Source: Cyanophora paradoxa CCMP329 (Eukaryota > Plantae > Glaucophyta). From it: 64,000 nt of DNA. This document shows positions 26,965 through 49,458 of the stretch, one piece after another. Numbering within the stretch: position 1 is the first letter of the stretch; every line of letters begins with the position of its first letter. The stretch spans positions 248,001-312,000 of the forward strand of contig QPMI01000520.1 of the NCBI GenBank assembly GCA_004431415.1, read 5' to 3'. Under the pieces are notes generated by a model, which saw nothing but the letters and a program-made list of their open reading frames with translations, made no database searches and was not told where the DNA came from. The position numbers were made by a program, and so were the translations under genes.

Positions 26965-27252
26965 ATGCGAGACGCCGCCGCGGATGCGGAGCCGCTCGCG
27001 GCGCGCTCGGCGGTGCTGCGCTCGGCCGTGCTCGCGCCGCGGGACCTCTCCATGGTCTCCGAGCGAGCCGCGCGCCGCGAAGGAAATCCCGGAGGATGCT
27101 CGTCCTCATTCAACGGAGCGGGCTCAGAGTCGCCGTCAAGCGAGCCCGAGCCGCGCGTAGCGATGGAGCGCGAGCTGCCAGAGGGCGGCCTGCTCGCTTG
27201 GCTCGTGGTCATCGCCTCCTTCATCGTGCACGTCTGCGTCTTCGGCATGCAC
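26965..27252 (+). pseudogene. Monocarboxylate transporter (SLC16/MCT, MFS) exon 1, 5' half of an interrupted gene
   Basis: PEGGLLAWLVVIASFIVHVCVFGMH matches the MCT TM1 motif PDGGWGWVVV.ASF; followed by GTGCGC donor; continuation lies ~20.5 kb downstream. Confidence 0.85.
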
Positions 27253-27359
27253 GTGCGCTCACCCAGCATCCGAATTCTGGTTCGTTCCGGTTTAGCTAGC
27301 TAGATCCACTCCAGCAGTTAACGTTAATAAGTTGACTTTGTTGTACGATAATAACGTTA

Positions 27360-29174: not shown

Positions 29175-29862
29175 CTACATAGTAGATTAACCCATGTTCC
29201 CCTTGGAAGAAAATTCCGTTTAGTACTACGGCAGACTCAAACTGCCAGCATTGAGAGCGGTGCGAACAGTCAAAGTCACTGACTGGACTGTGCTCCATGG
29301 GTGGTCCAGCCTGGGCTGCCAACAGTCGTGCCAGCATGTTTGGTAAGTGGGGAACTTGTGAATCGCAGGCCAGTGGTTGAGTTGTCGCTCTCATTGGTAT
29401 ACTCAATTCGATATGCACTTGAAGGCTGCCAGTGCTGCCTTGACTCACTGTGGTCACTGAGACAGGCTCCACATGAGAAGGAAAAGTCACTGAGTGATGT
29501 ATGACTCTGTGACTTCTTAAAAAAAGTAGCGGCAGCCGCTGCCCTTGCCAGTGAGCTTGGAAGTATGAAGTGGGAAGATCTGCCACAGAGTGGAGTTTTG
29601 TGGCTGAAATTGGGTATCCGGCAGTTCTGTCAATGGAAAGTCCCTTTAGTGCTGTGGTGCACTTGATTGCTCAGTGCCGATTCAGAACCAGTTCGATTCT
29701 TGGCAAACAATAAATAATACATTAAACATCTTGGCATGTACAACAAAAAGAAAAGCATATGTTCCACAATGTACAAACAACAAAACAAGACAAAAAACAA
29801 AAAAACACAACACTAACACAACGTTCACACATTCACAACAAACAAAACAGAAACTTGCCAAA
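29173..29862 (+). repeat. 1813-bp unit copy 2, left part (up to the LINE)
   Basis: Matches 27360-28049 (same ORFs at offset 1813). Confidence 0.95.
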
Positions 29863-30147
29863 CATGCTGCCCCGTGTCGTACCCCCCCGGATCTGGCGAG
29901 GCACGCAGCAGCACAGCAGCAGCAGCGCGGAGCGTGGTGCGCACTTATTCTTATCTTATGCGTCGTTCTGAGACTCTCCTGCCCTTGGGCACCTACAATC
30001 TGCCGCGAGGCACCTATCCCTGTCCTTCTCGCACCTATCCCTGCAGTTTCGCTTGATCTACGTGCCAATGCGCATCACATGACGCGTTTTCCGCTTGCGT
30101 CACTGCGCGCTCCTGACCGCTACTCTGCGTCGGCAGTTTTGACCGTT

Positions 30148-32664: not shown

Positions 32665-32666
32665 AT

Positions 32667-35600
32667 ATGGTTAACATTGCATCAATAAATGTGGGCGGGC
32701 TCAATAGTCCCAGCAAGCTGCAGACCTTTGTGGAACGTTGCAGGAAGTTCGCCGTTGCTCACAAGATAGACATTCTCTGCTTACAGGAAACGAAGTTACG
32801 GGAATTTGATGACGCTGGTCACCCTTTGGGAAAACTTGCGAAGATTGCCGCTGCCTGGCGAGGCCCGTTCTTCCACTCTGCTCCTACTCAATCCCGCTCC
32901 ACTGGTGTTGCCATAATGGTCACGCCCTTCTTTGCTGCACAGCACGAGGTTACACTTGCTCGTCAGGACTCTGATGGACGTTTTATTTCGGTCTCTGTTG
33001 CGTACAAGGCGTCGGGTTCCTTCCCTGCTACGACCGTACTCTTGGCTTGCGTCTATGCCCCTGCTAGTGACAACAGGGACCGCCGTGAGTGGTGGCAATC
33101 TTGTGTGCACGCTGGGTATCTCTCCGCTACTGTGCCTATGCTTCTGATCGGAGACTGGAATCACCGCACCCCGAAGCCCAATTCCCTGCAGCGCTCGTAC
33201 CTTCACACAACGATGACTTCCCACCAGCTTGATGATCTTGCGAACCATGCTCCACCGCCTCCTGCCGGCGGAACTGCTTCAGCTTTTGCCCCAACTTATT
33301 CACGAATTGTTAGCCTTAAAGCTGTAAACTCGCGCCTCGACTTTGCTCTTGCAACCAAGTGGTTCCAGCGTCGCCTTGCCACGTACTCGCTCCTAGCGCC
33401 ATCCGATGCGCTCCATCTTCAGCTTGACCACCGCATTGTTGTTCTCTCCTTTTCAGGCCCTCGTGTGCACCGTCATTTGCCCCGGTCCCGCGTGCAAGCG
33501 TTCCCGTATGACTTCGTCAGCAACCTGCCCGGACAGTATTCTCAGCGCGGCGATCCAGTCTGCCTCGACCCTGCTCTGCGCAAACGCACGGAAACGCACT
33601 TGACCCAATTCCTGAGCACTATCCTTCAAGCGCGCGGTGAAGGCGAGGTCGTCTCGGATGCCTCTGTCTTCGACGATACTTGGCGCGTATTCTGTAAGCG
33701 GCTCTGCAAGATGGCGCGTAAGCACAGAGCGCACGTGATTAGCAAGCTTTACACGCATGAGCGCGCGGCGTACAAAGCGCTGGGCAACGTTGAAATGAAG
33801 ATCTACCGCTTGCCGCCCGGCTCCGATGCTGTCGCGCTGTACCGCGAGCGCACCCAGCGGCTTGAATCCCTGCGCGAACTTCAGAAGAAGGTCTCTCTCA
33901 GCAATCGCCAGCTTGCCAGGCTTCAGCACCGGCTTACATTCGAAAGCGGCTCTAAGCGTGACTGGGCGCGGCTCGCCAAGCCCTCCTCCATTGTCCCCCC
34001 GCCGCTGCACTTCACCTCGGATGGTCCCACTGTTATCACTGTTGAGCCTGGCGCGGTTGCGAACTATTTGGCTAGAAAGCTTGTAGAACTGGGCGCTCCT
34101 ACCCCTGCTTTCCTGTTGACTCAGACCTCTATCCTCGACGCTCTCTGCCCCCCTCCTGAACCCCCCGAGGACCCTACTGTTGATATCCCCCTTCCGGCGT
34201 CTCCGGATAATCCCTCCGCTGCCGCTTTCATTCAACAATTTGTGGACGATATCTTGCCCCATGTTCAGGGGACTGTCCCGCCTGTTTGGCGCACTCAGAC
34301 TAATATCTCTCCTGACGACGTAGCGTTCTCTATCAGTAAAGCGTATGCCCATGGGGCACCAGGTCCTGATGGAATTCCTGTTGGCATTTTTAAGATGCAC
34401 ACAAAGCCCTGGTCTGTTTTCCTGGCTGCCTACTTTCAAAAGATCGCCGTTCAAGGCTTCCTTCCTGACTTTATGCGCGACTTGACCTACACTTTCATCT
34501 GGAAGCGGTCAGGCTTGCCCACTGATGCTTCGAAATACCGACCTATTGGAGTTTCTAACACACTCTTGCGCTTGTTTGAACGGACTATGGTCACAGTAGC
34601 CAATCCGATCTTACAACTCATCATTCCTGAAGATCAGTTCGGTTTCGTGCAAGGTCGGGACGTTCATAAAAATATCTTTGCAGTGCTGGCAACGTATACA
34701 CGCATCCGCTATGCCAATTATGACTGTGTTATCGGGTTTGACTCTGATCTGAAGTCTGCGTACGATCTCTTGCTTTGGGTTATTATGGCGCTTGTTCTCC
34801 ATGTTCAACAGTGGCCCTGGCTTATCCGGCGAATGCACCACTGCCTGTACAACCCCAGAGCCCCCCTCCGTGCACGTGTATTTGTGAATGGGCTATTCTC
34901 TTCTGTGTTCTCACGTCTTGTGGGCACCATTCAAGGTGGTCCCTGGAGCCCGGTTTCCTTCATTCTCTCGATCAGCCCTCTACGCTCTCTCTTGCTCTCA
35001 CTCACTGATATACCCCGCCCTGTTGGCACCCCCCTTGTCCAGTTTGCTGATGATATTTATCAGCTATTCCTGCTCCGCGCCCAGGGGCTATCTCTGCGTG
35101 ACTCCCTCTTAGCAATCCATGCACGGTTCGGCTCTTTCAAACCACTCTCTGGTCAACATCTCTCTATGGAGAAATCTCTGGCCATCGTCCTACGGGAACT
35201 TGCTGCCTCACCGTTGGATCTCGATCCGGCCGATCCCTTGCCATTCCCTGTTCTCCGCGTCGCTGAGCTTGATCCTGCTTGTCATAAGCAGCTCGGTTTC
35301 CCTCATCAGCTCCTTCTGGATCGCGAGCACCATCCGTCTTGGAACATGATTCAACATAAAGCGACCTTCTTTATGGAGACAGCTGTCGATTTCCAGTCGT
35401 CCCTTCTTGGACGTGGTCGCATCGCCTATGCTTTTTGTCAGGGGGTCTTAAGCTTTTATATCCGTGCGGTTCCAGCACCTCCTAAGATCCTCCGGGCTAT
35501 TTCAAAGAATTTACAGACCTTTGTCTGGAAACGTTCTTCAAATTCCGATGCGTTCATCTTACCCCATCAGGGCATGACCACTGCTTCGTGTCGACCTGTA

Positions 35601-38297
35601 TTTCTCGGCGGTCTCGGAGCGCCCTCCCCCGAACACTTCCAGCTCGCCTTTGCCGCAAACTCTTTGGAATCGTGGCTTGCTTCCCCGGCATCTCTTCCTG
35701 GTCGAGAAATTATTGAGGCGTTCACGGAAAACGGTGGCTTTGGGCTCTGGCTTCCTTTTCTCAACAGGACTGATCGCCTGGTTAAGCCTTTGTGGCCTCC
35801 ACCTGCTGACCCATTCTTTGCCATCTTCGACGCTTGGCGGACTATTTTCGATGTCAAGAAACCACGCTGCGCTTGGGATTTCCTGTGTATGCCGATCATG
35901 CACCCTTGGTATAAGAAAGACACGTACTATGAGCGTGATTTCACTTTCACGTTGCTCTTCCGTCTCGGCTTCCGTTTCAACTATCAAATCTGGGACTTCT
36001 CTGGGGAACATACTCTCTATGTCGAGCCCTCCTATCCCGAGCAACTGCGCGACCAGCTGCATGCGCTCAATAATCGACTTGCACAAGAGGTCTGGCGCTG
36101 TGGTCGCACTGCAGACTGGAAACACGAACCTGGAGGTCTCGCTATTGGCCCTTTTTCGAAACTTGCTGCTGAACGCGTCTCACTTCAGGGCGTAGCTCTC
36201 TGTCGCGTTCGCCTTCTTCCTGACACACAGCTCGCTTTCCATGAGATTGACGTGCCCTGCAGTACTTCGCTTGACAGTCCCGTTGCCCTCCCCGATGTAC
36301 TTGCGATCCGGCCCGCGGCCCGTGCGATCGACTTCATTCCCGTGCCTGCGCATGCGCTTAGCCTTGTTAAGAATGCTTGCAAGTTGTCCCCCATGCCTGC
36401 ACTCGTCCGGTTCCTCATGAACTCGTTACAGCTTTCCGACCTTGCACTCCGTCCGCTGCCTCCGTCGTCTTCCCGTACGTTTGCGTTCCACTCTGACCGT
36501 GAGAACATCAATGATCGCTCAAAGGAAGAGCTGCGCCTCTCTAAGTCGGTTGCGTACAAGCTGCCTGCTGCCCCGTCGCGTTTCACGGTTCACGACGTGT
36601 ACAAGTACCTTTCCTCCCACGCTTTCATGGCGCCGACGACCGCTGAGACTAAGTGGCGTGCTGATCTCTCCCCAAAGTTCCTCTGGCCGCCGGGCTACGA
36701 TGCGCGCACTGATCGCTTTCCCTGGTTCAACACGGTGATTCCCGACCTCCGCTATGCTCTCACGCAGCGCGTCCTTGATGGCTACTTTGCACTGCGCTAC
36801 AACGCTCTTCGCACATCGTCCCGCATCGCTGATATGGCTGCGCGCTCTGTTCTTCAGCGTCCTGCTTCGGCAAATTTGTTTGACAGTGAGCTCCTCTCCT
36901 CGCTATGTCCGGTCTGCCACCGGCGCTGCAATGCGCTGCACGTTTTCGTTCTCTGCCCTGTTGTGCAGCAGTTTTGGTCGCTCATCTTCCATGCCCTGCA
37001 GCTCCACCCGATGCCCATTCCTTCCGCTCGCTTTGTTGCCTGGTTGCTTACTGGCTCGGTCCGTTTTGCTGACAGCTGGATGTTCTTGCAGAACTGGGAG
37101 TGGCAGGTTGTTCGGATTCTTGGATTGCACGTCATTCTCCGCTCGTATTGTCTGGCCTATCGAGCAGGTCGCACTGAAGCTGCGGCCACGTTTGCAATGG
37201 ACCCTAACACACAGCTGCCCCTTACACCTTCCTCCAAGACGGGCTTGAAGGCCGCTACTCTGATGACTGCCTTGTTCCGCGAACTGGACGATTTCATGGA
37301 CATGCTTCCTCGCCGTTTACCTCGATTTAAAGTCACCTATGTCCGTGGGTATTTCCGTTTCATCTCTACTGCTGACCCCTCTCATTCTTCATTCTACGCT
37401 AATCTTTTAGACGCTGCTCGTACTTATGACCATTCCCTAGCCTCTTATGAGCACTGTGAACACATTGCTCAGCCTGCCCCTAGCCCCGATCTAGCCCCTA
37501 GCCCCCTTGTGGCACAGTTTCCTTATGCCAGTGCGCGGCCTGTCCTGCTGCAGCGTCTTGAAAAGGAGGATCTTGAAGGCTATATGTCCCCTCCTGACAA
37601 CGGCTCAGACTCCTCTGACCTTTCCGACCTTGGCCCTGATGATCCTGGTGATTCCTCCAGTAGTACCTCATCGGATGATGACGACCCCCCTGGTGGACCC
37701 GACCCTGCCCCTGACCCTGGTCCTGTGGCTCACTCACCCCCTCACCCGCTGCCACCTCACCCGCCGCCCGATATTGACTCGGAGGATGAGCCGCCTCTTC
37801 AACGCCGTCGTGTTGGTGCTTCAGCGTTTGGTCTTGATGCTGCTATAGATGATACAGGTTCACCTCCGCCCTCTCCTCAAGATATCATCTATGTGGATGA
37901 CACTGAGCTTGCCCCTGATCTGCTGCCGATCTCTCCTATCCGAATCGACGCTGTTGATGTTGAGCCCGACTTCACGAGTCATGCTGTCATTGCTTCCCCA
38001 GCTCCTCCCTCTTCTGCCCCTCTGCTGTCTTCTGCGCCTATGACGCCCATGGATACTGATCCTCTTTCTCCTTCTATTGTCCCGCCTAAGCGTCGTCGAG
38101 TGTCTTCTCCAGACCCTGGTGCTCTGGATCATGGTGATAACATTCCTGGTGTCCCACCTCAGGTTTCTTTCAAACGCTTGCGGCCTTCACCTCCCCCAAC
38201 TCTCCCATCCGCTGCCCCTATGGATCTTGCTGATGACCCAGGTTCCCCAATGGTGCTTATCTCTGACGAAGAGGCTGATGACATGACTGATGGCTGA
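32667..38297 (+). CDS. LINE ORF2: AP endonuclease + reverse transcriptase + zinc finger, 1876 aa
   Basis: APE: SINVGGL, DILCLQET, GVAI, DGRF, VYAP, GDWN, SRLD, DH. RT: APGPDG, YRPI, QFGF, DLKSAYD, GTIQGGPWSP, FADD. Zn finger CPVCHRRCNALHVFVLCP; acidic/Pro-rich C-tail. Confidence 0.97.
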   Translation: MVNIASINVGGLNSPSKLQTFVERCRKFAVAHKIDILCLQETKLREFDDAGHPLGKLAKIAAAWRGPFFHSAPTQSRSTGVAIMVTPFFAAQHEVTLARQDSDGRFISVSVAYKASGSFPATTVLLACVYAPASDNRDRREWWQSCVHAGYLSATVPMLLIGDWNHRTPKPNSLQRSYLHTTMTSHQLDDLANHAPPPPAGGTASAFAPTYSRIVSLKAVNSRLDFALATKWFQRRLATYSLLAPSDALHLQLDHRIVVLSFSGPRVHRHLPRSRVQAFPYDFVSNLPGQYSQRGDPVCLDPALRKRTETHLTQFLSTILQARGEGEVVSDASVFDDTWRVFCKRLCKMARKHRAHVISKLYTHERAAYKALGNVEMKIYRLPPGSDAVALYRERTQRLESLRELQKKVSLSNRQLARLQHRLTFESGSKRDWARLAKPSSIVPPPLHFTSDGPTVITVEPGAVANYLARKLVELGAPTPAFLLTQTSILDALCPPPEPPEDPTVDIPLPASPDNPSAAAFIQQFVDDILPHVQGTVPPVWRTQTNISPDDVAFSISKAYAHGAPGPDGIPVGIFKMHTKPWSVFLAAYFQKIAVQGFLPDFMRDLTYTFIWKRSGLPTDASKYRPIGVSNTLLRLFERTMVTVANPILQLIIPEDQFGFVQGRDVHKNIFAVLATYTRIRYANYDCVIGFDSDLKSAYDLLLWVIMALVLHVQQWPWLIRRMHHCLYNPRAPLRARVFVNGLFSSVFSRLVGTIQGGPWSPVSFILSISPLRSLLLSLTDIPRPVGTPLVQFADDIYQLFLLRAQGLSLRDSLLAIHARFGSFKPLSGQHLSMEKSLAIVLRELAASPLDLDPADPLPFPVLRVAELDPACHKQLGFPHQLLLDREHHPSWNMIQHKATFFMETAVDFQSSLLGRGRIAYAFCQGVLSFYIRAVPAPPKILRAISKNLQTFVWKRSSNSDAFILPHQGMTTASCRPVFLGGLGAPSPEHFQLAFAANSLESWLASPASLPGREIIEAFTENGGFGLWLPFLNRTDRLVKPLWPPPADPFFAIFDAWRTIFDVKKPRCAWDFLCMPIMHPWYKKDTYYERDFTFTLLFRLGFRFNYQIWDFSGEHTLYVEPSYPEQLRDQLHALNNRLAQEVWRCGRTADWKHEPGGLAIGPFSKLAAERVSLQGVALCRVRLLPDTQLAFHEIDVPCSTSLDSPVALPDVLAIRPAARAIDFIPVPAHALSLVKNACKLSPMPALVRFLMNSLQLSDLALRPLPPSSSRTFAFHSDRENINDRSKEELRLSKSVAYKLPAAPSRFTVHDVYKYLSSHAFMAPTTAETKWRADLSPKFLWPPGYDARTDRFPWFNTVIPDLRYALTQRVLDGYFALRYNALRTSSRIADMAARSVLQRPASANLFDSELLSSLCPVCHRRCNALHVFVLCPVVQQFWSLIFHALQLHPMPIPSARFVAWLLTGSVRFADSWMFLQNWEWQVVRILGLHVILRSYCLAYRAGRTEAAATFAMDPNTQLPLTPSSKTGLKAATLMTALFRELDDFMDMLPRRLPRFKVTYVRGYFRFISTADPSHSSFYANLLDAARTYDHSLASYEHCEHIAQPAPSPDLAPSPLVAQFPYASARPVLLQRLEKEDLEGYMSPPDNGSDSSDLSDLGPDDPGDSSSSTSSDDDDPPGGPDPAPDPGPVAHSPPHPLPPHPPPDIDSEDEPPLQRRRVGASAFGLDAAIDDTGSPPPSPQDIIYVDDTELAPDLLPISPIRIDAVDVEPDFTSHAVIASPAPPSSAPLLSSAPMTPMDTDPLSPSIVPPKRRRVSSPDPGALDHGDNIPGVPPQVSFKRLRPSPPPTLPSAAPMDLADDPGSPMVLISDEEADDMTDG

Positions 38298-38567
38298 AGG
38301 TTTCACACGTGAGGTCGTGACCAGGACTCCCCCAGGCCGGCATTAGGAAGAGGCCCGCATTGGGATGTCTGTGGTTGCTTTCCGTGTCTGCGTGTATGAG
38401 CGCCGGACCGCCGGGGCATACATGGCAGACCGTAAGGCGTTTGCGCCGCCACTACCCTTGTCTGGTTGGTTCACTGTCGATTGTGCTTCGGGCCTTCGGG
38501 TCCTTCGCCTTTCGTCAAAACCGCACAACCGGCTTGGGCGTGTCTTATACATACTCTTCTTCTTCTT

Positions 38568-39701
38568 CTTGCCAAATTGAAATTGAAGAGATTGTACTTG
38601 CATTGTTTGTTTAACATCTAGATCAGTGGCATCTAGATCTTTACATTGATCATGATGCATGCATTATTCATCATGGCATCATTGCATGCATAAAATATTG
38701 TTGCGTGTTACATGCATGAAATAAAATGATCAATGATTGACTTGTTCATGATCAATTCTTCTACAACCTTGCCAGGTTGTTTTTGCCAAGTTGCCAATTG
38801 AAGTGTTCAATTCTTAAGCTTCTTGCAATTGTTCATGATCAGTGCCGCAATGTGTTGCCAGGCTAGATAGCTGGCAAGGTGGTGTATTGGGGTACAGGCA
38901 GACTGAGGTACAGGGGTACAAAGCTACAGGGACTTCGACAGTATATCACTGCTGCAATACATGTTAACGTTCAAGCTTCTTGCCCACTTTCCTGCTAAGG
39001 ATTGCCCTTGCTTTGCCAGCCATGGCCAGTATTTAACACCAAAACTCGATGTTCGATGACAGATCTAGAACATAAATGATCAAAACTTTGAAATACGTAT
39101 ACATTGCATGTGCTTCTTTTGTATTGTTTTGTGATCACTTCATTGTTTCTGGATCTGTTCTGAAATGCTCTCTTCTTCAGTGCTTCAGCTTCATTTTCGT
39201 TCTTTGTAATACGATTGATCATGAACCACAAGAGATTCATGTGTGCAATTTCAAACTTCTTGCAATTGTTCAGTGCTTTAGCTCTTCTTCTCATCTTCCT
39301 GGCTAAAGCTATAGCTATAGCTAAGAATATCAAATCGCCCTTTAATTTCTTTGCCAGCCAAGAATTAAACACCAATTGCAAAGCACTGTGTTTCATGACA
39401 AACCATAAATGATGAAGCCTCGCTTTGGACTACATTGCATCTCGTGCATTGTTTCCAGATTACATGATCAGTGTTTAATTTCTACATCTTCCATGCACTC
39501 ACATCTGTGTTCTTTATGTTCAGTGCTTCAGCTTCTTCTGTTCTGTCTTTACAACTTTAGTACTTCATTCTCATTCTTTGTTCAATTAATAAGTAGTAGT
39601 AGTAGAAGTAGTACGTAGAAGAAGAAGAATAGACCACAAGAAATCAAAGACTCCTAAATAACACTGGGGGGGTGCGGGGGGGCGGAGCCCCCCTGCTTGT
39701 G
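38568..39701 (+). repeat. 1813-bp unit copy 2, right part (after the LINE)
   Basis: Matches 28041-29174 (same ORFs at offset 10527). Confidence 0.95.
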
Positions 39702-39745
39702 AGACGGGGGCCGGCGACCCCGGGCGAAAAAGTGGGACCCAGTGC

Positions 39746-39905
39746 TCATTGCGGACGCCGCGTGTCTTTCAGCTCCCCCTTCAGCGCCTCGACCTCCTCC
39801 TCCCGCATCCGCAGCTGCCGCCCCGCCTCGACCGGCGCCGGCGGCGGGGGCGGGCGGGGCGGGGCGGGAGGGGGCGCACGCTGCTGAGGGCGGCGATGTG
39901 CTCGT
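39746..39905 (-). pseudogene. Short coiled-coil gene fragment (EHIAALSS|LRMREEEVEALKGELKDTRRPQ*)
   Basis: Two in-phase exon pieces joined by a GTGCGC..CAG intron; no clear 5' end. Confidence 0.35.
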
Positions 39906-42709
39906 TCGAGGCGGCACACGGGGGGACAGTGGGGGTTCCTTTGGCTCCCAGCGTGCAGTCCCGCCGAACCGCACCTGGACTGCGCCTGGCCGGGCGGGCT
40001 GGGGCTCGGGGTCGTGCGGCCGGCCCGGCGAAGGTGCCGGCAGCGGTTCCGAGCCCGAGGACGTCCACGAGAGCGATGAGTGCGCCCGCCGCTCGCGCTC
40101 TCGCCGCTCTCGCGGCCCGTGGCTTGAGCTCGCTCCCTCCCTCCGCGCAGAGACTTCGACCTGGCCGCGCACGACCGCGACATCTTCGACCTCCGCTGGG
40201 ATCGATATCGGCTGCCTCGCGACAGGCGCGGGTTCCGATTCGGCTCGTGGTACTACAACGCGTCGACGGGGCTCTACGAGAACAAGCCCCTCGGGCTGGT
40301 AGCCCGCAAGCGGCCCGTGCCGTGCCGCTCGGAGCGCGAGGGGGGCGCGGCCCCGCTGCCGTCGGACGCGTGGACCGACCGCGGCTGGAGGGTGGAGAAG
40401 CGGCCGGACGCCGCCGGGCCGCCGGGCGATTGCGGCCGTTCGGCGTGAGGTACGTCGGCGGTGCGCCCGTGGAGTACTACGACCCCGCCTCCGGCGCCCG
40501 TGCCGACGCGTTCGACGAGAAGTGGCTCGCCAAGGTGCGCACGTCCCCCCCCCCGGGCGCCCCCCTGCGCGCGCGCGCCGCCTGAACCGCCGCGGCCCGT
40601 CAGGAGTGGGGCCGGCTCCGCTTGGAGGGCGGCTGGGAGCAGTTCTGCGAGGGCACCGCGGCGGGGCTCTTCCACTACTGCGAGCGCACGCTGGAACCCT
40701 CCCGCGTAGACGACTGGCGCGCCATCTGGACCGAGTACTACAACCTGGAGACGGACGAGATCTACAGGCCGGCGCGGCAGTGGCTGGATGCGGACCCGCG
40801 GCGCCGCGCAGGGGAGGAGCTCATGCAGTACTTCCTGGAGAACCCGGAGGACTTCGGGATTCCGGCGCGCTGGACGCATGTCACGTACATCGAGCTGCCC
40901 ATCGACGGGCACGACTTCGGCGTCCGAGAAGTGAGCGAAGGAGGCCGGACGTACAGAGACTACATCAACTTCGAGACGGGCGAGCACGCGCGCTGGATCC
41001 TCCACCGCTGGTTCACAGAGGAGAAGCCGTGCGCGCGGCCCCGCCAGCCCCCCTTTCGCCCCGCCGCCCCCCATGTCTGACGTGGGGGCGGGGGCCCGGG
41101 GCCGTGCAGCGTCGGCCCGCAGGTCCGGAGCATGTGGGAGGTGGACGACAAGCCCGTCGTCCGGCAGTTCCTCCAGGAGTGCATGGCTGCCGTCTTGGCG
41201 CGTCGCGCGGCCGTGCGGGAGCTCGCCGCGGCGCGCGCGGCGAAGGCGGCGGAGGCGGAGGAGCGCGCCGCAGCTGAGGAGGCGGCGGCGGAGGCGGCCG
41301 CGGCAGCCGAGGCGGAGGAGCGCGCCGCAGCTGAGGAGGCGGCGGCGGAGGCGGCCGCGGCAGCCGAGGCGGAGGAGCGCGCCGCAGCTGAGGAGGCGGC
41401 GGCGGAGGCGGCCGCGGCAGCCGAGGCGGAGGAGCGCGCCGCAGCTGAGGAGGCGGCGGCGGAGGCGGCCGCGGCAGCCGAGGCGGAGGAGCGCGCCGCA
41501 GCTGAGGAGGCGGCGGCGGAGGCGGCCGCGGCAGCCGAGGCGGAGGAGCGCGCCGCAGCTGAGGAGGCGGCGGCCGAGGAGGAGGCGGCGGCCGAGGCGG
41601 AGGAGCGCGCCGCAGCTGAGGAGGCGGCGGCCGAGGAGGAGGCGGCGGCCGAGGCGGAGGAGCGCGCCGCAGCTGAGGAGGCGGCGGCCGAGGAGGAGGC
41701 GGCGGCCGAGGCGGAGGAGCGCGCCGCAGCTGAGGAGGCGGCGGCGGAGGCGGCCGCGGCAGCCGAGGCGGAGGAGCGCGCCGCAGCTGAGGAGGCGGCG
41801 GCGGAGGCGGCCGCGGCAGCCGAGGCGGAGAGCGCGCCGCAGCTGAGGAGGCGGCGGCGGAGGCGGCCGCGGCAGCCGAGGCGAGGAGCGCGCCGCAGCT
41901 GAGGAGGCGGCGGCCGAGGAGGAGGCGGCGGCCGAGGCGGAGGCTGCGGACGCAGCGGCGTCGGCTAAGGTGAAGGCGAAGCTGCCGCGGCCGACCTTGG
42001 CCGGCGCGGACAGGCGGGCGGGCAGGGGAAGCGGTTGCGGCCGGCCGACGCGACGGGGGCGGGCGAGACGGCGCCCGCGTGGGAGGCCCCGGGGCGGAAG
42101 GCCGGGAAGCGGGCGACCGTGGCCGCGCCATCTCCCGCCCGGCCGTCCCCTGGGGAGACTTGGGAGTGCGCTTCTGGCGCCCCCGGGCTGCTTCGCTTCC
42201 AGCCCGTGTGGATGCCGCCGTTCGCCGAGTGTCCGACTTTTGGAACCCCGCCCGGGCAGCTGGGCGCTCAGTACGACCTGCAGCTCTTTCCCCCGTCCGC
42301 CTTCCTGCAGCAGCAGCTCTTCCTGCAGCAACAGCTCTTCCTGCAGCAACAGCTCTTCCCCCCGCCCGCCTTCCTGCAGCACCAGCTCTTCCCCCCTCTC
42401 CCGCCGGCCCCGCCCGGCCCGCCTGCCCCGCCTGCCCCGCCGGCCGTCCGGGTCCCGCCTGCCCCGTCGTCTGGACTGGCCCCGCAGCCTTGCAAGGGGA
42501 GCAAGGACATCACGCTCGACTGCATCCGGTGGTTCTTCGAGGCAGGCTGGAAGCAGAAGGCTGCGGCTCTTCACCTCGGTGTCGACCCCAACACGCTCCG
42601 CACGGCCTGCTGCAATCTCGGGGTCGACCGGTGGCCAGTTCGCTTGGAGGGCCCCAAGGGTTTCCGGCTGGCCCTCTCCAAGAGTCCCTTCGTCCCCTCC
42701 CATCCATGA
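39900..42709 (+). pseudogene. Frameshifted multi-exon gene with Trp/Tyr-rich N-terminal domain, Glu/Ala repeats and C-terminal RWP-RK domain
   Basis: KDITLDCIRWFF...AAALHLGVDPNTLRTACCNLGVDRWPVR (42503-42643) fits the RWP-RK consensus; consensus introns; frame breaks near 40430, 41830-41885 and ~42030; no clear start. Confidence 0.7.
41248..41945 (+). repeat. Coding minisatellite of 60/57-bp units (AEAEERAAAEEAAAEAAAAA), ~11-12 copies
   Basis: Directly visible near-perfect tandem repeats. Confidence 0.95.
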
Positions 42710-43109
42710 TGTGGATAGTACTGTAGCTAGTCTTCTCGCCCTTCGCTACCTGGTCCCTGCACCCACCCCTTGCTAGCTTGTTTATATACATAGTAATAGT
42801 CTCGGGTCCGGCTTTTTCTAGTTTTCGCTGGGTTATCGGTTCGGGATGAAGAGATCTAGAGCTTGACGTCAGTAATCCTCCGTCTGCATATGGTTGCGCT
42901 TAAGGGGCCCAGGCGTTTCCGCTCGGGGAAGGGGGTCGGTGATTGCGACGTGGAACCGGCGCCGGTCCCCGCATGCGCGCAGCTGGTCATATGCATGGGC
43001 CGCGGTTCAGTTAACCGGCGCCGGTCCCTGGTCAAGCTTCGAAAAAAATTCAGTTAGAAGTAAGCTTAACTTAGTATACGTAAGGTAACTTAGTAATTTT
43101 TATAAGGCG

Positions 43110-43725
43110 CTCTGGATCCACCGGGCCGGTCTGCGGCGCCATCTGCAGGCCTAGGCCGCTTTAAGGTTTTCCGTTTTCCGAAGTTCAGTTTTGCAGGTTC
43201 AACGGTTATCGTGCAATTGCAAGCGCTAGCCTAGTAGCTAAGGGCGCCCGAGCTCAGTTTTGCAGGTTCCGAAGTTCAACGGTTATCGTGCAATTGCAAG
43301 CGCTAGCCTAGTAGCTAAGGGCGCCCGAGCTCCGGATCCGGTCTGCGGCGCCAGCTGCAGGCCGCTTTAAGGTTTTCCGTTTTCAGTTTTGCAGGTTATC
43401 GTGCAAGCTAAGGGCGCCCGAGCTCCGGATCCGGTCTGCGGCGCCAGCTGCAGGCCTAGGCCGCTTAAGCTTTAAGGTTTTCCGTTTTCAGTTTTGCAGG
43501 TTATCGTGCAAAGCTAATTATAAGGGCGCCCGAGCTCCGGATCCGGTCTGCGGCGCCACTGGGGCCAGCTGCAGGCCGCTTTAAGGTTTTCCGTTTTCAG
43601 TTTTGCAGGTTATCGTGCAAAGCTAAGGGCGCCCGAGCTCCGGATCCGGTCTGCGGCGCCAGCTGCAGGCCGCTTTAAGGTTTTCCGTTTTCAGTTTTGC
43701 AGGCGCAGGCCGCTTTAAAGTTTTC
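43110..43725. repeat. Modular tandem array, 77-112 bp period, rich in palindromes
   Basis: GCGCCCGAGCTC at 43244, 43321, 43414, 43526 and 43629; core CCGGATCCGGTCTGCGGCGCCAGCTGCAGGCCGCTTTAAGGTTTTCCGTTTTCAGTTTTGCAGG. Confidence 0.9.
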
Positions 43726-44095
43726 AAGTTTCCCGCCCCATGTCACCGCTAGTAACGGCGGCCCTGGCCCCTGTGCCCGCTTCGAATTCAAAGTCGCAGT
43801 TTTCAGTCTACATACCCTTGCAATTGCCCCTTTAATTTCACGAAGAAGGTTGAATGTGGTTCAATGCATGTATTCTCTTCTGTGGTCTAATACACAGGCT
43901 GGTTTGAAAATGCTGGTTTGAAAAGCGATCTAGAGATCGATCGGACTGTACAAAGTTGACTGTGCAAAGCGGACTGACTGTATAAACGGAGGGCTGACAC
44001 ACTGCAGCCTCGAAGGGGCACATCTAGCCCTGGACATTGAAAGGTGTGACATACTACAAGGGTTCTTCGAGTCGGAAACAGAAGGAGGTCGCCGC

Positions 44096-47000
44096 TCACT
44101 TCTTCTTGCTGAGGAAGCCGAGGATGGAGGGCTGGCCCTTGCCGCCCTTGCCGCGGGCGGCACGGCGCGGGGGGCGCGGGGCGGGCCGGGTGATGACGGG
44201 GGCGACGGCGGGCAGGGCCGGGGCGGCCTCGAGGTCGATGATACCGGCCGGCGAGGGTGCCGATGCCCCCGCGGTCTCGGCCTCGGCAGCGTCCTCGGGG
44301 TCCTCCGCAACGCGCCGGCGCCGATTGACTCGCCCGCGCACCGGCGGGGTGACAGTGTCCTCGTCGCCGGAGCCGGGGCCGGCGGACGCGTGACGCTTGA
44401 GGGCAGTCGGCACCGGCCCCGGCACTGCGGGGCCCGGGGCCACGGCCGCAGAAGCCGAGGAGGAGGAGGGGGAGGAGGAGGAGGAGGAGGAGGAGGAGGC
44501 GGAGGCGGAAGCCATAGGCTGCTGAACCGGCTCGACCGGCTCGAGGAGATCCCAGTGGTTGCGCCCGTCGTGGATCATCTGCGCCGGGTAGAATGAGAAA
44601 GCCCACAGGGCGAGCCACGGGGAGCAGTAAGACAAGAGAGGACACCCTGACTGCGAGGTGCCCCGGGCTCGGCGGGTCGGCGTTCGGCGTGTAGGACCGC
44701 CGCGTCCCGTCCTGCGTGTACCTGCACGAGCGGTCTTAAGAGATAACGGTGCGTACGAGGAACAGAACGGCGCGCACGTCCCCTCGAACACCGCGGCGCC
44801 GGTCTCGTCGACGCGGTAGACGGCGACGTCGATGCCGATCATGTTCGCGACCTCGGCCACCTCGGGGATACCGCCCCAGGCCCCCGCCTCCCGCATCCTC
44901 TCCAGGTACCCATCGATGCCTCCGTGCTCGTCGAAGTCGCCCGCGACGGTGGTCGCGGCGGCATCGTCGGCGCGGGCCAGGATCCCCTGCGATGACGAGC
45001 CCGTGTGCGTCGGGGGATGCAGGGCGGGGCGCGGGGCGGGGACGGGGTGGGGGTGGGACGGCGGGCGGCAGGTCGCTAGAGGCAGGCATACGGGGGGAGA
45101 CAGACAGGCTAAATGCAAAAACGGGCGCTGGCCGCGAGCTGCACACCTCGATCTCCTCGCGGCGGGTCGCAGCGTGGTCGACGATCGCCTGGCGCAGCTC
45201 GAGTGGCGTGGTGTGGCGGTCGAGGCCGAGGCCGTGCGCATGCAGGAAGGCGTGGACCTGAGGGGGCTGGCGATGAGAGGCAGACAGATCGAAGCCGAAG
45301 GGGAGGGGGGGCGTACCGCGTGGAAGAGGCAGTCGCCGTCGCGCGGGACGATGGCGCGGTAGTGGTGCGCGCCGTCGATGTAGTACGCGAGGGGCATCTG
45401 ATGGGCCTCGTACTCGAGGATCTGCCGGGCCTCGTACTCGAGGAAGCTGACCTCGCGATCGTCATCGTCGAGCTCACCATCATCACAGCTGAACTCGCCG
45501 TCGTAGTCGAACTCGTCATATTCCGGCGCGCCGGGCACGGAGGGCCTGCGAATGAGGGTCAGAGGTTGCAGATGGGACAGAGAGAGACCACGCGCGTGTA
45601 CCCTGCACCCTCTGCGCTGGTCGGCTCTGGGCACGTAGCGTTGGCCGCGGCTGGTGGGCCGGCGCGGGCCGGGGTGCGCGCCGCGTCACGGGCCCGAGCG
45701 TCGCGGGCCCGATCGATCGCATCGCCTGTCGCGCGGGCCTCCCGTTTGATCTGGCTGATGGCCGCGGTGCCGAGCTGGAACGGACGGACACCCGTGCGGC
45801 GGAGCTTGTCCTTCAAGTCCCGCTCGATGGCGCTGATACCGAGAAAACCGTGCTTTTTGCACGTCCCCGTCATGAACTCGACGAACTGCGACAACGTCAA
45901 CCCGAAGAAGATCGCACGCTAGAGCGCGGAGGGGACGCGGACCGTTGCATTGTCGTGGAATTCGCCGATTGGACGGAAGCCTCCGTCCAGTATAACCAGC
46001 TCGTAGCTGTAGCCGTTGCGCTTGGCGTTGTCGAAGGCCGCTGCGTACTTGACAGTGTGTTGGTCTATCCTGTCAGTTGGTTCCCGCACACATGACTGGA
46101 CCAGCGTTTTCACCGTCTTGACCTGCCGACGGGTGCGCATCAGAAAAGAAAAAGGGCGAGCGCCGTACGCGTGAGCGACCAGCCCACACCTCGATGCCCC
46201 TTTTGAGCTTCGGCTTGCCGTTCGCGTCGAGACACATCGAGCCGTTTGCGTGCACCTCGAACACGCCAATGTCGAAGGTGTACGTGCCCTCCTGCCTGCC
46301 CGCTTTGATGTACCTGCATACACAGAGTCAGATCGCCGGTGACCCCCCAATTCCTCTATGGAAAGGGTGTGTGGGGATGAGAGAAAGGGATGCAGAGAGA
46401 AAGAGAAAGAGAAAGAGAGATTAACTTTTTAGGAGAATGAAACTATGTGAAAGAGAAAAAGAGAAAGAGATGCAGGAGATACATACGGCATTGCGAGTTG
46501 TTCCCGGAACTTCGACCCGTCGAACGGGGTACGGATGCTGCTCGCGACGACTCCGTCGCGCCGGACCAGTATCTCGACCATGGCGGACTCCTGTCGAGGG
46601 GGTCAGGAGGGGAAGGGGGAGCCGGGGCGGGGCGGGGTTGTCACCGCTTGTGACTGCGTGACGACGATCTCCGTCTCCCCCGCAAACGTGCCGTCCGCAT
46701 ACCGGAAGTTATGCGAGCGCCGGGATCCCGCGAGTGCGTGCGGCTGTGCACCCAGTGTGACACAAGGATACGAAAAGGACACGAAAAGGTATGAACTGAC
46801 CCGTATGGCACCTATGTGCATCAGAGACGCAAGCTGGACGCGCTCAAGAATCTCCGGGTTCTGCAGCGCGTGGCGGTAGCCCGTGCGCGCCTCCAGCGTA
46901 TCCTGTTGCCGCTCACGGGTCTCCGGGTTCTGCAGCGAGTGGCGGTGGCCCGTGCGCGCCTCCAGCGTATCCTGCTGCCGCCGAACACTCTCCGGGTTGT

Positions 47001-47733
47001 GCATCGCGTTGCGGTGGCCCGTGCGCGCCTCCAGCGTATCCTGCTGCCGCCGAACACTCTCCGGGTTGTGCATCGGGTTGCGGTAGCCCGTGCGCGCCTC
47101 CAGCGTATCCCGCATCCGCAGAACACTCTCCGGGTTGTGCATCGCGTGGCGGTGGCCCGTGCGGGCCTCCAGCGTATCCTGTTGCCGCTCACGGGTCTCC
47201 GGGTTCTGCAGCGCGTGGCGGTGGCCAGTGCGGGCCTCCAGCGTATCCTGTCTCTTCTGAGCCCGGCTGAGGTAACTGCACGGCCTGCATCTCCCGTTGA
47301 GAACCCCGCGCGCGAGCCTGCCCGCGTTCATGACTCTGGTTGCGTTGTGCGGGCATCTGCGGGCCATTTCTTTTCGAGTCAGGCGAAAGACCCGAATGAT
47401 GCAGGCGAGAACAATGCAAGCGAGCTTTGCGCACTCCACGGTCCCTTCTGACGACGGGCCAGGGCACTTGACTTCGACTTCAGAGTTGAAACCATTGAAC
47501 GGTTCGACGAACCTGGCGGTAGGGGCGCGGGCGTCCGAATGAGTTGTCTGAGACACCGATATGTAAAAAGCTCCGCACCCGACGACCGAGATGCCCCGCT
47601 CTTCGATCCTCTTCGTCAGACTCTCCCTCGTCAATGGGCGGCCGCCAGCCACAGACACGACAAAGTGAGACAGGAGCAGTACAACCAGCGCCCAGCCGGT
47701 CGCCTTCGACCGACGCTCGCGAACTCCCGCCAT
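44096..47733 (-). CDS. Putative multi-exon fusion: Zn-ribbon + 23-aa repeats + PD-(D/E)xK endonuclease + OTU cysteine protease + PIP box
   Basis: KC..ECPH..GRCRPC; 6x QDTLEARTGHRHALQNPE; TQSQAE..YTFDIG..IEVKT..NGYSYELVILD; OTU VPRDGDCLFHAV..LRQAIVD..YLERM..AWGGIPEV..NHWDLL; C-terminal QPSILGFL. Exons splice in phase; the join across the TAG at 45919-45921 needs a 24-nt intron. Confidence 0.7.
46836..47250 (-). repeat. Six 69-bp coding repeats (23 aa)
   Basis: CTCCAGCGTA at 46891, 46960, 47029, 47098, 47167 and 47236. Confidence 0.95.
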
Positions 47734-47762
47734 ATCGCTCCAAACCTCTCGTCCCTGTACCC

Positions 47763-49458
47763 TCCGTCTTCATTCTGCCATACGCGAAGGCCTTCAACGT
47801 TGGACGGGGCGCTGTATCAATCATCAGTATGTGCCCAGTGCCCCTGTTCGAGCGCTCCCGGTTTTCAGGCTCCGCCCCGCAGGCACAATCGCCTCCACCC
47901 TCTTCCCCCTCGCGGGCGCCCTCGTGGGGGCCCTCGCGGACCGCTGGGGGTACCGCAAGGTCCTCGTGGTGGGCGGGGTGCTCTTCTGCGCCGGATTCGC
48001 CATCAGCGCCTCCGCACAGGAGGTCTGGCACCTCTACCTCACGCAGGGTCCGGCCCCGTAGCGCGTACCCCCGCGCACCCGCGACCGCGTCCCCCCCGCA
48101 GGCGTCATTGTTGGCCTTGGAATATCAGCGCTCTTCTTCCCTTCCGTTTCAGTAGTGAATCAATGGGTCAAGAAAGAGTGCGTGTACCCCCTCTCCGCCA
48201 CCATGTTTCCCCTCTTTCTCCTTCCCCCCCCCCCCCTCCCCCTCCCCCCCCTCCCCTCTCTTACTCCTGGCCTTGAGGCAGGCGGCGGGGCCTTGCTGTG
48301 GGCGTGGCGAGCTCGGGCTCGGGCGTGGGGAACGCCCTCTTCGCCCTCCTCATCGAGGCCCTCGTCGCCTCCCAGGGCTGGCGGGTGCCCCCCGCCTTCA
48401 TCAGCCCCTCCCCTCCTCGCCCGCCCCACGCCCCGCCGCAGAACGCGCTGCTCGTGATCGCCGCGCTGCACGCCGGCCTCCTCTCCGTCGCCGTCGGCTT
48501 CCTCCGCCGCCGCCTCGTCCCGCCCCCGCCCCCGCCGGGCCCCGGCGGGGTCCCGCCCCGCCGTCCGCCCCTCTTCGACGTCGGGCTGCTGCGGCGGCGC
48601 AGCTTCCGCCTCCTCTACGCCGCGACGCTGCTCGGCCAGACCGGCTTCCTCATGTCCGCCCCCGGGCCCCCGGTGCCGCCCAGATCGCTCTGGTGGGATC
48701 TGACGGGGGGCGGCGGCAGGCCCTCCGCGCACGTGTCGGCGTTCGCGCAGGACCAGGGCATGCCGGCCGCCTTCGGGGCCCTCCTCGTCTCCCTCCTCGG
48801 CGCAGGCTCCGCGGTCGGGCGGGTCGCCCTGGGCCTCGCGGCGGACCGCTGGGGCCCCCTCCCCGTCCTCCGCCTCGCCATGCTCGTCAACGCCCTCGCC
48901 ATGCTCGCCTGGCCCTGGTGCACCCTGCCCCCGGCCCTCGCCGCCTTTTGCGCCCTCTACGGCTTCACCGTGCGCCCTGTACCACACCGGCCCCTCGCGC
49001 GGGCCCGAGAGCGGCGGGGTGCAGGGCGGGGGCTTCATCGGCGTGCTGCCGGTGGCGGCGGGGGAGCTTTTCGGGGTGGAGCGCCTGGCGCGCGCCTTCG
49101 GCCTCCTCTTCACCTCCTTCGGCGCCGCCAACGCGGCCACCTCGCCCCTCGCCGGCTTCCTCTTCGACGCCACCGGCTCCTACACCCCCGCCATCCTCGC
49201 CTTCTCCGGTCCCCTCCCCTCTCTCCTCACGACCCGGTTCCTTCGGTGACGGGCGCGGGGCTCGCAGGGTGCATGCTCGCGTCGGCATGCCTCCTCCTCT
49301 TCGTCCGCCCCGAGCAGCCCTCCGGCGCCGCCGTCGGCCCCGAGCTCGAGCTCGAGCTCCCCGCGAGGCAGCCGCGGCCCCGCGAGGCGCCGGAGGCGGC
49401 CCCCCCGTCCCCAGGGGACCTCTTGCCCGTCAAAGCCCCGCCGACCGTCGCCGTCTGA
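47763..49458 (+). pseudogene. Monocarboxylate transporter (SLC16/MCT), 3' part of the interrupted gene
   Basis: SVFILPYAKAFNVGRGAVSII|STIASTLFPLAGALVGALADRWGYR, LYLTQG..GLG, VNQW..RRGLAVGVASSGSGVG, GRVALGLAADRWG, ELFGVERLARAFG, PLAGFLFDATGSY; lacks its own TM1 and start. Confidence 0.88.

Follow-up and report, generated by a model that had tools for sequence, protein, structure and literature searches.

The gene on the reverse strand at 44096..47733 of the 64,000-nucleotide stretch of Cyanophora paradoxa DNA analysed here (the window) raises the question of how a virus-style endonuclease came to be joined, within an intron-bearing algal gene, to an OTU domain and a predicted PCNA-docking motif, and whether it serves, as the original prediction proposed, as the core enzyme of an undescribed mobile element. 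Spliced contigs from three studies (runs X15, X16 and X19) demonstrate that the locus is one real gene with 12 GT-AG introns and 13 exons. All 12 joints, seen as CT..AC on the forward strand, are missing from the DNA run X3; ten are common to the three spliced runs and the remaining two occur in X15 and X16. Runs X15 to X20 are taken to be RNA since they hold GT-AG joints that the DNA run does not. Joining the exons (47733-47579, 47512-47435, 47356-46801, 46743-46645, 46590-46487, 46313-46190, 46122-45943, 45885-45602, 45545-45317, 45257-45147, 44986-44778, 44721-44646 and 44578-44096) at the observed joints gives a single 895-codon frame from 47733 to 44096, whose translation is letter-for-letter identical to the database protein P0001. 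The in-frame TAG at 45921-45919 is removed by splicing, as had been predicted, although the intron that carries it is 57 nt long (45942-45886; joint 45885/45943 in X15, X16 and X19) and the earlier reading had missed two further introns in the 5' part of the gene (47578-47513 and 47434-47357). The joints rule out both a 24-nt intron at 45942-45919 and a two-gene model with a stop at the 45919 TAG, and one contig spans the nuclease and OTU parts, confirming the single transcript.

The modules of the protein, all described here on the reverse strand, occur in the order that the original prediction gave them: Zn-ribbon, six repeats, nuclease block, acidic linker, OTU domain and a terminal QPSILGFL. 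Ahead of them is an N-terminal leader (aa 1-29, 47647..47733) with a hydrophobic stretch that reaches the maximum Kyte-Doolittle value of the protein (1.98 in a 19-residue window at aa 11), is not spliced out in the X15 and X16 contigs and, by eye, resembles a signal peptide; these first ~30 residues are absent from viral relatives. A CapR-like segment with a Cys4 zinc ribbon follows (aa 33-104, 47278..47637; C68, C79, C101 and C104), for which the CapR match is weak (Pfam E 0.13, below the cut-off) and two of the four cysteines, C79 and C104, are invariant among six aligned sequences. The six 23-aa repeats (aa 114-251, 46840..47250) belong to DUF7487 (Pfam E 9e-17, 62.2 bits versus a cut-off of 27), match PHROG 3339 'homing endonuclease' (E 3.5e-8), are detected by TRF in the DNA as 5.8 copies with a period of 69, and are likely to bind DNA. 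The DUF7487 family (PF24308) is uncharacterised and is not named in the literature that we searched.

The nuclease domain (aa 255-432, 45943..46827) contains the QSQAE/TFD/IEVK/GYSYEL block at aa 293-418, in which E297, D345, E372 and K374 are invariant in 77 aligned sequences, P0001 included, although the invariance of the E and ExK positions partly reflects how 53 of the homologues were initially chosen. The domain is ~20% identical to its relatives and its sequence likeness to the family is weak: the hhalign score (31.5; E 1.2e-4, 109 columns, probability 55%) is clear of the shuffle maximum of 16.4 (n=40), and the HMMER score of 9.9 bits exceeds the maximum of 7.7 in 1000 shuffles by a narrow margin. 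The Pfam TnsA_N profile found no match in P0001, and neither phmmer with P0001 nor the nuclease-family profile had a significant match among PDB sequences. A fold model (pLDDT 84), which was built with the family alignment and is thereby biased towards the family fold, gave viral Foldseek matches at E 3e-9, the nearest being giant-virus Vsr/MutH/HJR-type and restriction endonucleases. Against the PDB, Foldseek returned nothing at E 0.001 or better, most of the top rows being nucleases of the same fold, and the best solved-structure match was TnsA (1t0f; Z 7.4, rmsd 4.7, 113 aligned, a Z in the tool's 'common' range), with FAN1 rows at Z 4.8, one of them a PCNA complex. In the ESM Atlas, DUF7487 and TnsA-like clusters were top for aa 255-432, all below 0.9 and thus a lead only. 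The profile comparison, fold model, Foldseek search and TnsA match agree with the virus-style PD-(D/E)xK endonuclease that had been proposed, and the fold predicted over 45950-46720 is indeed that of a nuclease. The N-terminal half can be classed as a TnsA-like PD-(D/E)xK endonuclease with DUF7487 repeats, a type that giant viruses and phages commonly encode, and is predicted to cleave DNA.

The relatives of this nuclease bear on how the two halves of the protein came together. In 79 of 79 viral loci, which were found with a 10-protein alignment and are relatives of P0005's subfamily and perhaps not the nearest kin of P0001, the protein ends at most 7 residues past the nuclease profile, and 72 of 75 database relatives end at most 50 residues after the nuclease. 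The algal protein continues for 463 residues beyond it. An OTU domain was found in none of 52 long relatives, nor was a second nuclease-OTU fusion seen in the viral loci or database relatives examined, and P0001 and P0002 as single queries identified no relative in viral contigs. Because the viral relatives stop right after the nuclease profile, the 57-nt intron is likely the point where a viral ORF and the C-terminal half were joined, and we infer that the N-terminal half is of viral origin. Median GC is 0.28 in the viral loci versus 0.66 here. Phage relatives are annotated as Hef or homing endonuclease, and a phage major head gene is split by a group-I-like intron (E 1.9e-5, short of the Rfam cut-off) within which lies a DUF7487-repeat endonuclease found with P0001. 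No eukaryotic orthologue was listed in word-seeded searches that each scored ~8000 candidates, nor was one present in the best 150 of 815 phmmer matches, in keeping with the original prediction, which a syntenic gene outside any insertion would have contradicted.

The C-terminal half begins with a three-helix segment (aa 433-500, 45682..45885) in a low-confidence model, which has no Pfam match and no meaningful PDB match. A resemblance of aa 433-480 to a CENP-B/pogo-type helix-turn-helix was considered and dropped on the same two null results. A single-sequence fold of the whole protein was uninformative (pLDDT 41), its structure search returning generic helices only. The OTU domain (aa 576-750, 44534..45400; PF02338, E 2.2e-8, 35.1 bits versus a cut-off of 23.3) is of deubiquitinase type and retains its catalytic residues, C599 within the DGDC at 45340-45329, H743 at 44557 and D745, as had been claimed; its activity is predicted. 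PDB matches to it are weak (viral and human OTUs, best E 0.03). The C-terminal tail (44099..44134) consists of QPSILGFL at 44134-44111 and basic residues after it, and a second basic, NLS-like stretch is found at aa 819-826. A PIP box has the form Q-x-x-[ILM]-x-x-[FY]-[FY] and sits in a disordered, often terminal segment; QPSILGFL has Leu in place of the last aromatic residue. Of 3000 shuffles of the sequence, one placed the PIP-like motif among the final 20 residues and 50 had it at any position, for a pattern chosen after the motif had been noticed; the motif is present in 1 of 154 relatives. The PIP-like tail of the original prediction is present, and binding of the replication clamp (PCNA) by it is predicted.

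The setting of the gene is as unusual as its composition. It sits at the right end of an inserted block (39702..47762, neither strand assigned; ~8 kb plus up to ~100 bp at 27253-27360, or 20.5 kb counting nested repeats, the left end being approximate) that interrupts a host MFS gene for a monocarboxylate-type transporter. Exon 1 of that gene, identified from sequence on the forward strand at 27162..27252, is matched over 27172-27251 by a ~90%-identical transcript, has no PDB match on its own and is followed by an intron start that has no matching acceptor; the rest (47762..49458, forward strand; Pfam MFS_1, SfMCT/MCT2 matches) resumes within exon 2. About three codons and the intron-1 acceptor appear to have been lost at the junction. 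Breaking the gene probably came at low cost since an expressed, ~90%-identical relative exists. The ATG of the endonuclease-OTU gene at 47733 is ~30 bp from the junction at ~47762, at the insertion edge as had been predicted, and RNA contigs from two studies end at 47754 and 47757. A second, convergent gene of the block (40050..42709, forward strand, start approximate) has host-like GC, a 57-bp tandem array in which two units are one base short, and a C-terminal RWP-RK-like domain (Pfam E 8.5e-5, 22.8 bits, under the cut-off of 29.3). Between the two genes is a 94-109-bp repeat array (43100..43720; TRF 43313-43703), and CpG is undepleted (observed/expected 1.15 versus 0.37 in the nested repeat).

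Independent elements are nested at 27360..39701: two tandem copies of an 1813-bp repeat, with a GC hairpin at its end, and a LINE (29863-38567; APE and RT, 9-bp target duplication) that interrupts the second copy. The 1813-bp repeat has ~20-100 times the flank depth and loose ends at 27359/27360 and 29173/29174. The 1.8-kb repeat is therefore truly multi-copy, and the LINE inside it probably so. Capture of the block by read-through of the nested repeat is unlikely, as single-copy, non-host-intron-like DNA precedes the repeat and the repeat ends are sharp.

The block itself behaves quite differently from what the original prediction had led us to expect. Contigs of run X3 cross the 47762 end unbroken and unbranched at flank depth, the left end is likewise unbroken in two DNA runs, and no second copy was found at ≥90% identity in X3, so that the genome-wide copies sharing the 47762 end that had been anticipated were not seen there; nor did the word-seeded searches list a second copy of the protein in the 90% database. 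The block is seemingly single-copy, as judged from contigs of one of 14 DNA runs at the gene and of two at the left end. No 7-bp word, direct or inverted, is shared between 27240-27360 and 47690-47800 as a terminal repeat or target-site duplication (TSD) would require, the ends having in common two internal 6-mers only, both direct. Neither a DDE/D transposase, a tyrosine recombinase nor an HUH domain was found in the Pfam-scanned exons, which cover part of the block's frames, and P0001 lacks both domains of a Helitron RepHel (HUH and PIF1-like helicase). A core enzyme of a multi-copy element is therefore unsupported. A giant endogenous viral element was also rejected, given the 12 introns, the splicing and scanned neighbours that are actin-related, MFS, RWP-RK-like and LINE. 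With the MFS gene lacking its intron-1 acceptor, two convergent genes present and no Rfam match at gathering scores within the window, the block is not a self-splicing intron.

The same observations make the original view improbable in the form of an undescribed DNA transposon of low copy number, whose core enzyme this gene would encode and whose ends the TnsA-like domain would cut so that the block could move to new sites. The gene does lie at the element's end, a host gene is interrupted, Tn7 TnsA is the top solved-structure match (albeit with its Z in the 'common' range) and some Helitrons carry OTU domains (PMC9741609). However, both ends are unbranched, copies, terminal inverted repeats (TIRs), TSDs and a recombinase are lacking at the scopes given above, and TnsA by itself performs no strand transfer.

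We tentatively favor, at somewhat below even likelihood, a selfish homing-type nuclease that has turned nuclear and gained host-handling modules. Under this scheme, a giant-virus/phage-type endonuclease would have been fused to an OTU domain and PIP-like tail by way of a new intron over its old stop codon; the DUF7487 repeats would bind DNA and the tail would dock on PCNA, the nuclease would cut a chromosome lacking the block, the OTU would strip ubiquitin from PCNA or repair proteins, and host double-strand-break repair would then copy the block. The block itself may have entered during the repair of a break in which a little of the target was lost, and homing may have fallen dormant if empty alleles are no longer encountered. 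Such an entry agrees with the junctions, at which no TIR or TSD of ≥6 bp is evident and ~three codons and an acceptor appear to be missing, and with the single site. Homing is suggested by the PHROG match, the phage homing annotations and the relative in a group-I-like intron, by the four catalytic positions invariant in 77 sequences, and by the position of the gene at the very end of the block, for which the RNA ends at 47754 and 47757 are a weak hint. The association of deubiquitinases with selfish DNA (Helitron OTU/VTD, Wolbachia CndB) points the same way, as do the nearest folds, the low cost of the broken MFS gene given its expressed relative, and codon use: GC3s is 134/174 in the nuclease half and 160/169 in the OTU half (P 2e-6; MFS exons 173/181), making the nuclease half less host-like. 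More specifically, the gene could be a natural nuclear gene drive of viral origin, a giant-virus homing endonuclease, now spliced, that has recruited a deubiquitinase and PCNA-docking tail to steer host repair. It would propel an 8-kb cargo, in which the RWP-RK-like gene would be a transcription factor, into the site that it targets, with no self-splicing intron, intein, terminal repeat or transposase, a reading that we regard as unlikely.

Several observations weigh against homing. All 14 DNA runs listed carry 0.95-0.96 of the stretch. The single copy, 12 introns, expression and undepleted CpG suit a host gene equally, and the block, which does not self-splice and ruins a host gene, is unlike classical homing elements. 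The second gene of the block looks ordinary and another stretch resembles host DNA, as in a displaced piece of chromosome, and the hydrophobic leader could steer the protein away from the nucleus.

The main rival, possible if on the unlikely side, is a domesticated host enzyme. Here a captured viral nuclease with added introns, OTU and PIP would serve replication forks or damaged sites, where it would cut DNA that is stalled or foreign and reset the ubiquitin on PCNA; a one-off rearrangement unrelated to this activity would have brought the block into the MFS gene. Consistent with domestication are splicing in three studies, a single copy, two intact catalytic sets, and the host-like DNA and RWP-RK-like gene of the block. 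The undepleted CpG contrasts with viral-origin genes of Cyanophora, which are reported to be mostly methylated, methylated genes there being mostly silent (PMC12344493). Set against these are the failure to find a eukaryotic orthologue among the ~8000 word-seeded candidates or the best 150 of 815 phmmer matches, the location of the gene no more than ~30 bp from the junction at which a host gene is broken, and codon use in the nuclease half that is not fully host-like.

A poison-antidote system or meiotic driver, of which fungal Spok is an example, would have the nuclease harm the chromatin of block-free cells while the OTU or the RWP-RK-like neighbour protects carriers. The signal-peptide-like leader would fit delivery into another cell, and CndB shares the design of nuclease plus deubiquitinase, cytoplasmic incompatibility (CI) involving replication stress with PCNA retention (PMC12687446). 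Nevertheless, the deubiquitinase is of a different class and apart from the common nuclease fold no homology to CifB is apparent (E 0.31 for the CidB chain in the structure search), and we consider this account very improbable. Most improbable is a chimera in decay or without function, whose transcripts would start from a promoter that happens to lie at the junction: the nuclease is divergent and has insertions, the leader is odd and the neighbour's array has its two short units, but the frame is open across 13 exons, the stop-bearing intron is efficiently removed, and the catalytic residues of two enzymes and the terminal PIP-like motif are retained.

Whichever account holds, the components are known, and the combination of viral nuclease, OTU and PIP-like tail was not met with in the databases and literature searched. 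The gene illustrates cleanly how a selfish viral nuclease became a nuclear gene that is spliced, and the intron across the old stop apparently preserves the point of fusion. If the homing reading is true, it represents a nuclear selfish element without transposase, terminal repeats or self-splicing carrier, which as a single-copy element would be overlooked by repeat annotation; a domesticated gene would instead encode an enzyme of forks or repair that is specific to this lineage and made from viral parts. It further provides an expressed member of the DUF7487 family in a cultured host, and an example of the OTUs found in selfish elements, the activity of which, according to PMC9741609, had not been tested.

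Among the closest known systems are the viral DUF7487 TnsA-like endonucleases (Vsr/MutH/archaeal HJR, Hef-like; PHROG 3339), which have the same order of putative zinc ribbon, 23-aa repeats and QxxE..D..ExK nuclease and, as modelled, the same predicted fold, yet are intron-free, virus-encoded and end at the nuclease, whereas the algal protein is spliced and fused to an OTU. The free-standing homing endonucleases of T4-like phages (seg, mob, hef) likewise lack terminal repeats, and in such 'intronless homing' the endonuclease gene and flanking DNA are spread by host break repair (PMC2988022); however, those are phage genes located between conserved genes, while the algal gene is spliced, nuclear, fused to OTU and PIP, and breaks a host gene. 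Intron- and intein-borne homing elements spare the host gene, in contrast to the block that destroys the MFS gene here, and cut-and-paste transposons have TIRs, TSDs and dispersed copies, which the block lacks (copies at ≥90% identity).

FAN1-type fork nucleases combine the PD-(D/E)xK fold with a PCNA partnership, although the structural match is weak (Z 4.8) and, unlike the algal protein, they have neither a deubiquitinase nor DUF7487 repeats. The Wolbachia deubiquitinase of CidB/CndB is not known to be an OTU. CidB/CndB nevertheless unites a PD-(D/E)xK nuclease and a deubiquitinase in one selfish protein on replicating chromatin (PMC12687446), but it is a bacterial effector that contains four (pseudo)nuclease domains and is partnered by CifA, and the algal protein has no sequence homology to it that we could see. 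Epstein-Barr virus BPLF1 is a viral deubiquitinase that takes ubiquitin off PCNA (PMC4865505), a likeness that would be a functional analogy only, as BPLF1 is a tegument protein of another deubiquitinase family without such a nuclease. Helitron/Helentron RepHel proteins that carry OTU or VTD deubiquitinase domains (PMC9741609) pair a mobile-DNA nuclease with a deubiquitinase as the algal fusion does; theirs is an HUH Rep with a helicase, whereas the algal protein has neither, its nuclease is PD-(D/E)xK and its block is single-copy.

The motifs listed in the original prediction were present on the minus strand in a six-frame reading, and contigs of three runs guessed to be RNA, from three studies, contained 12 joints with CT..AC ends that were found in no contig of the DNA run. 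Splicing at these joints yields 13 exons and a single 895-codon frame (47733 to 44096, minus strand) whose translation is identical to the database protein P0001. The TAG at 45921–45919 is inside a 57-nt intron (45942–45886) with a branch-like TTGAC 15 nt upstream of its end. Since a single 1617-nt contig in two of the presumed RNA runs (X15 and X16) spans the nuclease exons to the OTU exons, there is a single gene across the TAG, as had been proposed. Cyanophora paradoxa has been reported to have 9.2 introns per gene with a mean length of 86 bp, and to be likely haploid (PMC6704402). RNA contigs from two studies end at 47754 and 47757, less than 10 bp from the insertion junction at about 47762, and the X16 contig there has 19 letters beyond its aligned part that may be adapter, upstream exon or leader. 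The 29-residue leader of P0001 is hydrophobic, which could be an argument against a nuclear role.

The six repeats in the N-terminal half of P0001 are DUF7487 (Pfam, E 9e-17), and a CapR match in the same half was below the Pfam threshold. A scan of all 1.84 billion representatives returned 815 matches at E 0.001 or better, and DUF7487 repeats were inside the matched stretch in every one of the best 150. A C-terminal QxYE..PD..ExK nuclease scored at least 60 bits in 75 of the 154 relatives fetched, two of the 75 having Pfam TnsA_N on record. Against a profile built from 53 of the relatives' C-terminal domains, P0001 residues 255–432 gave a weak HMMER match of 9.9 bits, the highest value among 1000 shuffles being 7.7. 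With hhalign the match spanned the domain from end to end at a probability of 55% and E 1.2e-4; its score was 31.5, and that of the top-scoring shuffle among 40 was 16.4. The sole invariant columns in a 77-row alignment were E297, D345, E372 and K374, the invariance of the Glu and ExK columns, unlike that of the Asp column, being partly due to how the rows were picked. The domain, modeled with that alignment (pLDDT 84), had 26 viral structure matches at E 0.001 or better, led by Klosneuvirus and Marseillevirus giant-virus nucleases and followed by phage homing and head-completion nucleases and iridovirus proteins. Among solved structures the best match was Tn7 TnsA (Z 7.4, rmsd 4.7, 113 aligned), and further proteins with the PD-(D/E)xK fold came next. 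The model supports the anticipated nuclease fold and its PD-(D/E)xK assignment, short of independent proof as the fold leans on the family alignment.

Viral contigs contain many members of the subfamily, as defined around the relative P0005 (506 of 600 candidate stretches), and 30 of the 79 loci kept are giant-virus MAGs by name. Phage relatives carry Hef or homing endonuclease annotation. In the phage locus L001 (6221–9308), a group-I-like intron splits the major head gene and contains, on the opposite strand, a DUF7487-repeat endonuclease; the latter was found with P0001. The relatives P0003 and P0007 join DUF7487 repeats to an N-terminal domain that by eye is GIY-YIG-like, and further relatives join them to MTES_1575-like and Mom-like domains. 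Because they are joined to differing nuclease types, the repeats appear to be a module that is shuffled among selfish nucleases.

The C-terminal half contains the predicted OTU domain (35.1 bits versus a cut-off of 23.3) with its catalytic residues C599, H743 and D745, and ends in QPSILGFL plus basic residues. We take QPSILGFL to match the PIP consensus except for one substitution, making it a putative PIP-like motif; one of 3000 shuffled sequences had such a motif within its final 20 residues. P0001 alone was returned as a nuclease–OTU fusion among longer proteins, and alone among 492–1567-aa proteins scored on residues 255–750 (about 8000 candidates each). None of 52 long relatives had an OTU domain, nor did any ORF in the 79 viral loci match one. 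Viral ORFs stop at most seven residues past the nuclease profile in all 79, and the stop-bearing 57-nt intron is likely the fusion joint as it starts right where these relatives end. Synonymous GC3 was lower in the nuclease (134/174) than in the OTU half (160/169) or in four exon pieces of the flanking MFS gene (173/181), which is expected if the nuclease half arrived more recently. Literature searches, in a collection with few of the subscription journals, found nothing naming DUF7487 or treating Cyanophora OTU-domain endonucleases, and a general review was the sole, partial match for a domesticated giant-virus endonuclease with spliceosomal introns and a PIP box. The fusion is new within the databases searched; its parts are already known, and its architecture and setting are unreported in the literature covered.

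The gene sits at the right end of a block splitting an MFS transporter gene, whose exon 1 ends at 27252 and which resumes within exon 2 at about 47762. About three MFS residues and the intron acceptor were probably lost, as estimated from MCT2 numbering, with exon 1 fitted by eye and without gaps. An intact MFS relative is expressed, since a ~90%-identical transcript covers exon 1 (8 differences) and the 3' exons (9 differences; probably the same contig, by equal depth). Of the 20.5 kb between the MFS halves, 12.3 kb is two tandem copies of a 1813-bp non-coding repeat, one with a LINE; the remaining ~8 kb comprises a host-like stretch, an RWP-RK-like gene, a 94–109-bp array and the P0001 gene. 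The original prediction suggested a search for copies sharing the 47762 end. In the DNA run X3 a 1030-nt contig (depth 15.4) crosses this junction unbroken, a 2424-nt contig (depth 18.3) covers 44521–46902, no variant letters are listed for this run, and a few bins reach 50–73 because of short GC-rich stretches with matches at other places. At the left junction, contigs of the DNA runs X1 and X3 are likewise unbroken. These unbranched contigs argue against near-identical copies of the block, depth not being copy number. The block ends share neither a TIR nor a TSD of at least 6 bp, and CpG is undepleted in the P0001 gene (1.15), in contrast to the nested repeat (0.37).

The 1813-bp repeat copies (27360–29174 and 29173–39701) share TG at their join and end in a GC-rich hairpin. 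The repeat is AT-rich and CpG-depleted, and has other flanks in the runs; its sharp loose ends and a depth many times that of the flank mark it as an independent element, resembling a non-autonomous one of rolling-circle or circle-forming type. Inside the second copy is a full-length LINE (29863–38567) that has two open ORFs, ends in a (TTC)n tail and is flanked by a 9-bp target duplication; its ORF2 (1878 aa, APE and RT) has a long, acidic, proline-rich tail. At 39746–40000 (minus strand), within the block, is the apparent 3' end of another host-type gene, with a short coiled-coil exon and a GC-rich intron. The RWP-RK-like gene (40050–42709) has repeated W/Y-rich motifs, a C-terminal RWP-RK-like domain and a 57-bp array of Ala/Glu-rich 19-aa units, two of which, near 41777–41889, are one base short through assembly error or frameshifts. 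Algal mating-type determinants are among the RWP-RK factors, which would matter were inheritance of the block biased. A degenerate 94–109-bp tandem array (43100–43720), rich in short palindromes, separates the two convergent genes.

The proposal that P0001 is the core enzyme of a mobile element fared less well, as the anatomy is not that of a cut-and-paste transposon, a Helitron or an endogenous giant virus. It does fit an element dependent on host break repair, by which free-standing phage homing endonucleases are described as moving together with the DNA that flanks them (PMC2988022). On these two grounds we favor P0001 being a selfish homing-type nuclease, with catalysis, binding and homing all predicted. 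Nearly as likely is domestication, with P0001 a host gene of viral origin: the gene is spliced and seemingly single-copy, in contrast to the viral-origin genes of this alga that have been reported as enriched for silencing methylation (PMC12344493). As a selfish homing-type nuclease, P0001 may be brought to replicating DNA by its predicted PIP, and its predicted OTU domain may strip ubiquitin off PCNA, repair factors or P0001 itself. Reported precedents for such accessories are the OTU/VTD domains of Helitrons (PMC9741609), CndB (PMC12687446) and BPLF1, which acts on PCNA (PMC4865505).
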